From positions 41,432-105,431 of the forward strand of contig CAVJRF010000003.1 of assembly GCA_963651945.1 (NCBI GenBank): a stretch of DNA of 64,000 nucleotides. Direction: 5' to 3'. The translations under genes were made by a program, and so were the position numbers. Below are positions 37,476 to 39,080 of the stretch, piece after piece. Within the stretch, counting starts at the first letter, position 1. The number at the start of each line of letters is the position of its first letter. This stretch comes from Eggerthellaceae bacterium (GTDB lineage: Archaea; Thermoplasmatota; Thermoplasmata; Methanomassiliicoccales; Methanomethylophilaceae). Under the pieces are notes generated by a model. That model made no database searches. It was not told the origin of the DNA and saw nothing but the letters and a program-made list of their open reading frames with translations.

Positions 37476-38336
37476 TCACACAAGAAGGAGCAACGTACCA
37501 GCGACGATCCCGACCAGACCGATGAAGGAACGTTTGGTCAGAACCTCTTTGAAGACTATGAACGAGAACAATATCGTCACAAGTATGCTGAGCTTATCGA
37601 TAGGGACGACTACGCTTGCCGGACCTTCCTGAAGGGCACGGAAGAAGCACATCCATGATGCGCCCGTAGCAAGACCAGAGAGCACCAGGAAACCCACGTC
37701 CTTACGATCGATCCCTTTCATCTGGCTCTGTTTACCCATCACGAATACCATCATCCATGACATGGCGAGTACGACGACCGTGCGTATCGCGGTCCCGAGG
37801 TTCGATTCCACGCCCTCGATACCGATCTTCCCCAGGATCGATGTCATTGCCGCGAATACAGCAGAACCGAGAGCGAAGATGAACCAACCGTACTTCCCGT
37901 CGGTTGTTCTCTCCACATCCTTCCTCTCTATCATCAGCAACGTACCTATGGCGATGAGCACCGCACCGGCAACACCGATGGGTGAGAGCCACTCACCGAG
38001 GATCACGGCCGCGAGGATTATCGTGATGACCGTACTCGACTTGTCGATGGGTACGACCTTGTTCACATCACCCATCTTCAATGCTTTGTAATAGCACAAC
38101 CAGGATGCTCCCGTACATAGCCCCGATAGTATCAGGAACAGCCATGTCCTCCCGTCGATCGTTCCGATATCCTGGGCCGATCCGACGATGAACACCATAG
38201 CCCACGCGAACACCAGGATCACGATGGTACGGAGTGCCGTAGCCAAGGTGGAGTCGACATCCTTCAGACCACATTTGGCAAGTATCGATGTCAATCCTGC
38301 GAAGAAGGCCGAACCTACGGCGAACAGTAACCACAT
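37476..38336 (-). CDS. EamA/DMT family transporter
   Basis: Two repeats of 'SA.FA..TSIL.K.G...V.S.L.TA.RT' and 'VVPIDK.S'. Confidence 0.9.
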   Translation of the reverse strand: MWLLFAVGSAFFAGLTSILAKCGLKDVDSTLATALRTIVILVFAWAMVFIVGSAQDIGTIDGRTWLFLILSGLCTGASWLCYYKALKMGDVNKVVPIDKSSTVITIILAAVILGEWLSPIGVAGAVLIAIGTLLMIERKDVERTTDGKYGWFIFALGSAVFAAMTSILGKIGIEGVESNLGTAIRTVVVLAMSWMMVFVMGKQSQMKGIDRKDVGFLVLSGLATGASWMCFFRALQEGPASVVVPIDKLSILVTILFSFIVFKEVLTKRSFIGLVGIVAGTLLLLV

Positions 38337-38464
38337 ACCATCATATCGTTGTACGACACAGCCCGGATATACCGTTTTCCACATGGCCGAAGATTGCATG
38401 GATCGGTACAAAGTCGATAAATACTCCGTAATTGATGCAGAGAATGGATGTCGATCGGCCCTCT

Positions 38465-38844
38465 TCTCGGTGGTCGTAAGATGTTTAAATCTTCAATAGT
38501 TCAACCGAAAGGCGAACTATTTGAAGGACCAGGGAGACTTTTTGAAGTAGGACTCCCTGGTTCTTCTCGCAGTCACCATCTCCTTTGAATCCTCCCAGAC
38601 AATCCTGAAACCGTTCTAGTGATGAGATGTAGGCCCTTGCCGTCCTCGCATGATGGAAGGAACACCAGAATCTCGATGACGAAGTCAATAAATACTCTGC
38701 CGATAATTGATATACAGAACGTTGACCGACCGCCTCTCGGCGGCCGTAAGATGTTTAAAACTTCAATAGTTCAACCAAAAGGCGAACTATTTGAAGGACC
38801 AGGGAGACTTTTTGAAGGATGACTCCCTGGTTCTTCTCGCAGTC
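38465..38844. repeat. Direct repeat, two ~110-bp copies (38465-38574, 38735-38844) offset by 270 bp, each with internal hairpins
   Basis: cgtaagatgtttaaa.cttcaatagttcaacc.aaaggcgaactatttgaaggaccagggagactttttgaag...gactccctggttcttctcgcagtc occurs twice. Weaker similarity extends to ~38411 and ~38682. Confidence 0.92.
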
Positions 38845-38850
38845 GGCTAT
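38755..38850 (-). CDS. Candidate 31-aa amphipathic peptide (non-canonical ATA start)
   Basis: GGAGGTGA at 38862-38855, then ATA...(I)ADCEKNQGVILQKVSLVLQIVRLLVELLKF-TAA. The same frame is open in the other copy (stop at 38485). Confidence 0.35.
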   Translation of the reverse strand: MADCEKNQGVILQKVSLVLQIVRLLVELLKF

Positions 38851-39080
38851 TTTGTCACCTCCCTTAAGAATTCTCAAGGCGTCTGTCCGCAAAGAGTCAA
38901 AAGTCCTCATATGCGGACTTCGACCCTGGCGATTGATAGTTAGTCGTACCAGGTCAATATAAACCGAATATTACAGTTAACAAGTTAATACGAACGACTT
39001 GGACGTACCGCCCCCTATTATGATCGTTCGATGACGACGATATACGTATAAACGGCGTTGACATCCCACCCTCCGATAAT

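Follow-up and report, generated by a model that had tools for sequence, protein, structure and literature searches.

The question raised by this locus is what occupies the 744-bp gap between an EamA gene on the minus strand (start at 38336) and a Nitro_FeMo-Co gene on the plus strand (39081) in the 64,000-nucleotide stretch of DNA analyzed here (the window). A sequence-only reading had recognized two copies of a highly structured element in a gap of ~740 bp, and had proposed that they form a type I toxin–antitoxin-like locus encoding a 31-aa peptide on the minus strand. The two copies are indeed present: left and right share 115 nt at 93% identity, lie 270 bp apart, and can be aligned over ~170 nt at 84% identity. 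The right copy (38681-38988) represents the whole ~310-bp module, in which an operator box is followed by a TATA element, a structured leader, GGAGGTGA, ATA, 31 codons, a GNRA hairpin and a convergent TATA element. The TATA, Shine-Dalgarno sequence (SD), ATA and 31-codon frame of this copy are all located where they had first been placed, whereas the limits originally drawn for the locus were too narrow, since the unit extends to the operator box at 38971-38988. The left copy, described earlier as keeping the frame without a clear start, is also devoid of the promoter, leader and SD, and retains the reading frame together with the stretch that an antisense RNA would cover. The features of the gap are listed below.

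38971..38988, minus strand: 18-bp upstream box, 7 nt from the sense TATA and a candidate site for an activator, with 16 sites in the genome.
38956..38963, minus strand: sense TATA TTTATATT, from the sequence; the 5′ promoter scores as forward-oriented in 37-44 of 48 copies.
~38932-38934, minus strand: predicted sense transcription start; five leaderless genes with the same box begin 56-58 nt past it.
38863..38933, minus strand: structured 5′ leader, from the folding of growing transcripts, alignments and covariation; its 5′ end is conserved.
38900-38921, minus strand: early leader hairpin, which competes with a longer hairpin at 38885-38918.
38862-38879, minus strand: hairpin abutting the SD, part of the leader structure.
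38855..38862, minus strand: SD GGAGGTGA; GAGGTG is invariant in 30/30 aligned copies, all of them picked as SD-bearing.
38755..38850, minus strand: 31-codon ORF, with the near-cognate ATA at 38850 and TAA at 38755.
38794-38835 and 38762-38795, minus strand: RNA stems within the ORF, from the covariation analysis.
38747..38756, minus strand: AAAC-N3-TTA motif past the stop codon; AAAC and TT are invariant in 30/30, and the motif is present in 63/79 units.
38727..38746, minus strand: 3′ hairpin with a GAGA tetraloop; two-sided changes in 6/7 pairs.
38681..38694, plus strand: the right copy's putative antisense promoter, with TATA-like AATAAATA at 38687-38694; position fixed in homologues, spacer variable.
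38717..38845, plus strand: predicted antisense RNA of the right copy, its start placed by promoter geometry and its 3′ end where conservation stops in SD-less copies.
38408..38600, minus strand: left copy, with an eroded SD region (38576-38596), a startless intact frame (38485-38574) and an imperfect 3′ hairpin (38456-38476).
38411..38423, plus strand: the left copy's putative antisense promoter, with GATAAATA at 38416-38423, which scores 6.9 as antisense and 2.4 as sense.

The view that the pair arose as a local duplication fails, as the two copies are members of a family with 17 copies in eight loci of the host genome (iterated DNA profile). Nine of the 17 are complete, with the upstream box, TATA, leader, SD, ATC or ATA and an intact 30-31-aa frame, and seven of the eight partial copies have a complete copy upstream of them in their array. 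A search with the peptide profile extended the family to 42 of the 261 genomes of the order, a count in which a few hits near E 1e-4 are possibly false, and every one of these genomes belongs to the host's family. Besides the host genome, 41 of 173 genomes of that family were matched (36/62 in genus g14, 2/11 among congeners of the host, 2/21 in g11 and 1/8 in g17), versus 0/87 in six other families. When 353 genomes sampled from the rest of the class were searched with a broader profile, none matched. Among 1.84 billion representative proteins 54 matches were obtained, 52 of which resemble the peptide family; many had been lengthened by gene callers to an upstream start, and the ten that we looked up were all unnamed.

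Records with true units are titled Methanomethylophilaceae, Ca. Methanoprimaticola, Methanomassiliicoccales or Thermoplasmata, and the host is probably a methanogen of the Methanomassiliicoccales. Five bacterial-titled records also contain true units and were not counted as evidence for occurrence in bacteria, as the contigs look like this archaeal family. The flanks of L095, L102 and L105 are 70-92% identical to the host genome, and those of L099 and L100 match its genes at 49-63% amino-acid identity. Chance pattern hits (L087, L089, L134, L136, L142, L148, L157 and L166) were dropped from the counts. None of the covariance models of Rfam 15 matched the element (best E 1.8), the peptide had no match in Pfam, NCBIfam, PHROGs, PADLOC or PDB sequences (profiles of TisB and other type I toxins included), and viral contigs contained 0 exact matches to the element pattern. 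One subfamily (L048, L051, L056 and L057) has a longer N-terminal region between the SD and the conserved core.

With respect to strand, the preference for the minus strand expressed in the sequence-only reading survives on grounds other than energy. Folding of 38670-38960 gave z scores of -5.1 for the minus strand and -4.6 for the plus strand; both fold far beyond shuffles, and energy alone therefore does not choose between them. The loops of homologues do point to the minus (peptide) strand, where 43/63 hairpins carry a GNRA or UUCG loop, versus 0/63 on the opposite strand. The proposed fold (a leader hairpin, a hairpin abutting the SD, two stems in the ORF and the GAGA hairpin) also gains from covariation. 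Specifically, in 30 complete units 91% of the cells in the four helices (leader, two coding stems and 3′ hairpin) are paired, and 18 of their 32 pairs show two-sided changes; slid controls reach 28-50%, and the structure was derived from the same 30-unit alignment, which favours it. Folding predictions further suggest that the leader could form an early hairpin and then a longer one. Two other elements were considered and dropped: a K-turn at CUGA/UGA, whose flanking pairs, judged by eye, are not conserved in the alignment, and a fold-back of the 3′ end onto the leader, for which complementarity exists in the host genus only.

The peptide frame is conserved in homologues. Over a 19-codon block in 78 units, a stop interrupts the peptide frame in one unit, versus 62, 26, 56, 35 and 38 units for the other five frames, and pN/pS in this block is lowest in the peptide frame at 0.47 (others 1.11, 2.48, 0.71, 0.57 and 1.55), a modest value given that one opposite frame reaches 0.57. 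These 78 units were chosen with the peptide profile, and two sets selected on DNA weigh more. The frame is unbroken in 9/9 complete copies of the host genome, and in 29 of 33 true metagenome matches it runs unbroken from ATG, GTG or a one-mismatch codon (39 pattern matches, of which six chance ones were dropped; the other four true matches are broken). On these comparisons the peptide is under selection.

The product is predicted to be one helix (residues 2-30, pLDDT 83), with a charged N-terminus followed by a hydrophobic helix that bears a narrow polar stripe of Q13, S16, Q20, R23, E27 and K30; conservation reaches at least 90% at both R23 and E27. Of 74 peptides, 72 satisfy the hydrophobic-stretch rule for type I toxins as given in the available part of PMC2887945 (ORF <70 aa, with 10 of 15 residues among IVLFCMA). 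Compared with shuffles, the window peptide is marginal in hydrophobic moment (p = 0.07), and the first atlas hit, a TisB cluster at 0.78, is a lead only.

In terms of initiation, the ATA start had been raised as a caveat against the coding reading, and it proved to belong to a family trait. An SD is present in 59/79 units, and 57 of these 59 have, at a conserved spacing of 10-16 nt after its first G, an in-frame ATG or a codon with one mismatch to it. The starts are ATC (28), CTG (10), ATA (8), ATG (6), ACG (4) and TTG (1); kin are non-independent in this tally and five of the ten CTG calls also have ATC or similar one codon earlier, yet five different substitutions are all one base off ATG. 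Canonical starts sought in homologues were thus found, in the form of six ATG codons at the same place. The SD-to-start spacing agrees with that of a natural archaeal SD-led gene described in PMC6237735, which also reports selection against non-canonical starts by aIF1 in Sulfolobus. The right copy additionally contains an in-frame ATG 20 codons upstream (38910), which the sequence-only reading did not mention. The 51-aa reading from this codon was rejected as the family start, as it is found in one subfamily only and 27/59 SD-bearing copies have no in-frame ATG, GTG or TTG further upstream; as the start of the right copy itself, ATG 38910 is possible. A search of the peptide frame for a conserved mok-type leader ORF found none; upstream stops in this frame lie 3-45 codons away.

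Structure predictions place at least half of the SD in pairs in 37/41 complete copies, with the start region as its main partner (mean 46% of SD pairing). Codons such as ATC, CTG and ACG may therefore both weaken initiation and tighten the SD hairpin, and because they strengthen SD pairing their conservation need not reflect initiation alone. We infer translation from near-cognate codons on the basis of the aligned sequences. Such starts would account for the way in which gene callers overlook the genes or misplace their starts, and the family, with ATG, TTG, CTG, ACG, ATC and ATA occurring naturally behind an SD, lends itself to the study of near-cognate initiation in archaea.

The interplay of structure and frame also invites a non-coding explanation, in which the element is a structured RNA or a non-autonomous mobile repeat, its frame is a by-product of the stems, and its apparent starts act as anti-SD only. 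The best-conserved codons (DQG and LVL) are the arms of one stem, the SD pairs with the start region, and copies are dispersed and patchy, as this explanation would have it. We nevertheless consider it very improbable, as third codon positions vary most (entropy 1.35, 1.02 and 1.59 for the three positions), ATG recurs at the same place in six copies, stop codons fall directly after the helix, and length differences within the aligned ORFs are 3 or 6 nt. A mobile repeat is further disfavored by the lack of terminal repeats in the window, by the single integrase among 102 flanking proteins, and by several loci that the host genome has in common with G020. The integrase-core (rve) gene at L031:3336-4391 (G000 C13), 421 nt from a complete unit, is the sole mobile gene among the 102 neighbors scanned.

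Genomic context bears on a different proposal, namely that the element is a cis-acting leader (riboswitch or attenuator) of eamA or that a plus-strand ORF beginning MFK(S/T)SIVQ, which the sequence-only reading had offered as an alternative, is the actual gene. The units in the window do face eamA and lie 74 nt from its longest frame. Across 59 loci, however, the downstream gene is on the same strand in 24, convergent in 29 and missing in six, and the flanking genes are functionally unrelated housekeeping genes in any orientation. The eamA genes of four congeners have no unit (no syntenic empty site was found at eamA, synteny being lacking), and Rfam gave no match. As for the plus-strand ORF, it differs between the two window copies, stops after 23 codons in the right copy, and has a counterpart of any kind in only 32/79 units. 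We give this proposal almost no credence. In being tandem or multicopy, intergenic and independent of its neighbors, the element shares a trait of type I loci.

A type I arrangement predicts a promoter facing the gene from the 3′ side, and a TATA-like element was found there, at a fixed distance past the 3′ hairpin and with a variable spacer. With promoter models trained on the host genome, this element was antisense-oriented in 51/60 cases (535 gene promoters), 47/60 (genes plus tRNAs) or 30/60 (43 tRNA promoters only), and the same three models read the 5′ promoter as forward in 39, 37 and 44 of 48. The antisense promoter of the left copy is identical to the right copy's element at 14/16 nt and would give rise to a second antisense RNA from ~38446. 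Two complete copies on C2 and their partial neighbors (four copies in all) are without the 3′ TATA. This array (L027:2824-3629, G000 C2), composed of two complete and two partial copies, also has a lengthened 3′ hairpin; it may depend on RNA supplied by other loci, or its activity may be lower.

Copies that have lost the SD are informative with regard to the antisense side. In eight pairs of a complete and an SD-less copy, identity over the promoter, leader and SD is 56-61% (leader 59, SD 61; shuffled baseline 53%), versus 84-89% over the ORF from codon 2 and 77% at the 3′ TATA. The corresponding values for seven complete/complete pairs are 89% for the leader, 98% for the SD, 82-85% for the ORF and 86% for the 3′ TATA. 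SD-less copies therefore keep what a counter-transcript would cover, which suggests that they are antitoxin-only copies. Gene conversion is a live alternative: the synonymous share of changed codons is alike in SD-less (17/49) and complete (22/69) copies, and gene conversion and antitoxin function account for this similarity equally well.

A sense–antisense duplex would call for a nuclease, a usual though not a universal part of type I systems, and the module is a candidate substrate for the short RNase III of the order. The host's RNase III domain protein is a stand-alone domain of 167 aa. The RNase III gene at L112:1321-1824 (G000 C6) encodes the full signature, with no room for a dsRNA-binding domain. 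The domain occurs in 179/261 genomes of the order and is absent from some whole genera (g7 and g10). Enrichment together with the element was not observed (36/42 carriers versus 133/174 in the family), and RNase III was not found in the complete genome G031, which carries an intact unit.

The sense promoter ties the module to other genes of the host. The 18-bp box just upstream of the sense TATA has 16 sites in the genome, compared with 2-3 in shuffles, and these score 23-32 versus 12.6 for the next best. Eight sites lie in modules and eight before other genes, namely a pilus/T2SS ATPase operon, a TctA-family gene, genes for an 88-aa protein (hydrophobic N-terminus, TM and a weak OB-fold lead) and a 1334-aa lamin-tail-domain protein, and four uncharacterized genes; seven of the latter eight sites are also found in G020.

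Non-module box sites (G000), part 1: C21:9237, C43:63, C12:25576, C8:16873 (loci within L124-L130, L032).
Non-module box sites (G000), part 2: C3:107037, C6:9227, C9:22258, C27:7566 (loci within L124-L130, L032).

In two methanogens, natural transformation cannot do without a type IV-like pilus and a TctA-like protein, and in one it also requires a single-TM OB-fold protein (PMC10133366). The genes behind the box are mostly leaderless, and together they probably form a DNA-uptake regulon. We examined this link with a matrix trained on 13 tctA and pilus promoters only (genera g1, g11 and g17), which scores 17 module promoters at a mean of 13.5 (two are low, at 4.6 and -1.0) versus -5.0 for 16 antisense promoters. 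The match between module and tctA/pilus promoters holds in 5/5 genomes of g1, g11 and g17, and G136 and two G123/G130 copies match the box by eye. The same type of test fails in g14 (8/17 genomes, p 0.68), the genus that supplies 36/42 positive genomes, and an own-genome permutation test moves from p 0.004 to 0.38 once four genomes are removed. A box shared family-wide is consequently not supported; in other genomes, too, the tctA promoter has a lineage-specific box in common with the pilus promoter (own 10.5 versus cross 7.7 of 14). For the host, the promoter comparison supports the link, which is lineage-limited. The 18-bp operator marks probable DNA-uptake genes in gut methanogens and, if the link is true, would be the first handle on competence regulation in an archaeon.

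The occurrence of the box at DNA-uptake genes in three genera would also suit a released membrane-lytic peptide that acts in competence and frees the DNA of neighboring cells, with the antisense RNA shielding cells that are not induced, comparable to phenol-soluble modulins and fratricide peptides. The sequences of paralogous peptides differ, as they do in competing peptides. This account is improbable in our estimation, given that no conserved leader peptide, exporter or immunity gene was found beside the units and that the net charge of the peptides centers on 0 to +2.

A weightier alternative is an antisense-regulated small membrane protein that is non-toxic and serves as an accessory or modulator of DNA uptake or stress, like sP24/asRNA94 of Methanosarcina mazei. 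The coding, structural and promoter evidence fits it equally well, the shared box ties the peptide gene to pilus and TctA-like genes, and two complete copies persist without an antisense TATA. There is also precedent in M. mazei, where a membrane peptide paired with an antisense RNA is reported to help growth in salt, and not to kill (10.1101/2025.10.28.685009). Patchiness would be unexpected for a helper, however: only 2/11 congeners have the peptide, while tctA and the pilus ATPase were present in 29/30 genomes tested. Nor should a helper need a buried SD, a weak start, many copies and frequent decay. We therefore judge this alternative unlikely, though deserving of serious weight.

Taken together, these observations support the statement that the element is built like a type I toxin–antitoxin locus, and its best reading, which we hold to be probable, is that of a new type I toxin–antitoxin-like family in archaea. 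From the earlier proposal, the frame, SD, spacing, ATG-started homologues and 3′ TATA speak for this reading, and the two complete copies without an antisense TATA speak against it. In the mechanism that we propose, the minus-strand promoter would yield an mRNA of ~220 nt for a membrane helix of 30-31 aa, whose synthesis would be restrained by three brakes: an SD hidden within a fold, chiefly through pairing with the start region; a start codon one base from ATG; and a counter-transcript that would run from the promoter past the 3′ hairpin across the 3′ end and coding region. The sense–antisense duplex would be cleared, with the host's short RNase III as a possible agent, and downstream copies that lack promoter and SD and keep the antisense promoter would act as extra antitoxin genes. 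Because the sense promoter carries the pilus/TctA-like box in the host genus and in two others, induction of the message there probably accompanies that of the DNA-uptake machinery. Once induced, the message could outrun the antisense RNA, and the peptide would then lower the membrane potential and hold back growth, in the way that TisB acts during the SOS response. We infer antisense transcription, the role of RNase III, induction and toxicity from sequence and from analogy with known systems.

Among those systems, txpA/RatA of Bacillus subtilis, like its relatives in that species, has an antitoxin that runs toward the toxin gene and overlaps its 3′ end, and, like the archaeal module as proposed, it involves duplex decay by RNase III and a sequestered ribosome-binding site, as far as the available parts of PMC4147584 and PMC12390103 describe it. 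Unlike txpA/RatA, the archaeal module has TATA promoters, a near-cognate start, an antisense RNA that is predicted only, and a host RNase III that is a 167-aa stand-alone domain; no similarity in sequence between the two was detected. The genes of tisB/IstR-1 in Escherichia coli have a divergent layout. TisB is likewise a membrane helix of ~30 aa, and its promoter contains an operator of a larger regulon, so that induction can outrun a steady antitoxin, a situation that the box parallels (PMC13159721 and PMC4147584, in the portions available). IstR-1, in the same portions, acts on a 5′ standby site, unlike the archaeal module, and involves no 3′ counter-transcript (PMC13159721, PMC4147584). 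The tisB regulon is SOS, whereas the archaeal box regulon resembles DNA uptake, and the Pfam TisB profile did not match the peptide at E up to 10. By analogy, the module combines a txpA/RatA-like layout with the size and regulon wiring of tisB/IstR-1, and is homologous to neither.

The aapA1/IsoA1 system of Helicobacter pylori has a 30-aa peptide, a cis antisense RNA from the opposite strand, a translation-blocking mRNA fold and metastable structures that form while the RNA is being made, according to PMC5416894. It is not homologous to the archaeal element, for which the analysis showed neither a 3′-processing switch nor a long-range 5′–3′ lock. Within archaea, the M. mazei spRNA/asRNA set comes closest, and it is reported to be non-toxic. 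In the available portion of that report, spRNA24/asRNA94 and four other pairs each match an RNA for a small protein to a cis antisense RNA; sP24 itself is a membrane peptide, and hok/Sok is the comparison that the authors cite (10.1101/2025.10.28.685009). These pairs are reported to promote growth in salt, are most likely leaderless and have a narrow range; the same portion does not describe them as toxic, multicopy or near-cognate-started, and we liken them to the module by description only. The transformation genes of Methanococcus maripaludis (pilus, TctA-like and single-TM OB-fold protein) parallel the box regulon, and the available account of them describes no shared operator and no toxin-like peptide (PMC10133366).

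A 2025 paper, in the part available, states that type I systems are found in three bacterial phyla only (PMC12390103). Our literature search, in which most subscription papers were beyond reach, returned no archaeal type I system and no account of this peptide family. If the type I reading is confirmed, antisense-controlled membrane toxins reach archaea. A bolder version would make this the first archaeal type I family in a competence regulon, with one activator box driving the pilus, the TctA-like DNA channel and a bank of membrane toxins with near-cognate starts, with arrest or lysis of part of the population while DNA is taken up, and with decapitated tandem copies as dedicated antitoxin genes. 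We advance this version tentatively, and doubt that it will hold in full.

Two further observations concern the coding region and its 3′ border. The AAAC-N3-TTA motif (38747-38756 and 38477-38486 in the window) is among the best-conserved unpaired sequences of the peptide family. Several otherwise intact units (L041:1501-1593, L066:1009-1101, L144, L152 and L165) contain an in-frame TAG, at the same site in more than one assembly. Pyrrolysine is used by the order Methanomassiliicoccales, and this TAG could be either a plain nonsense change or a site of pyrrolysine read-through.
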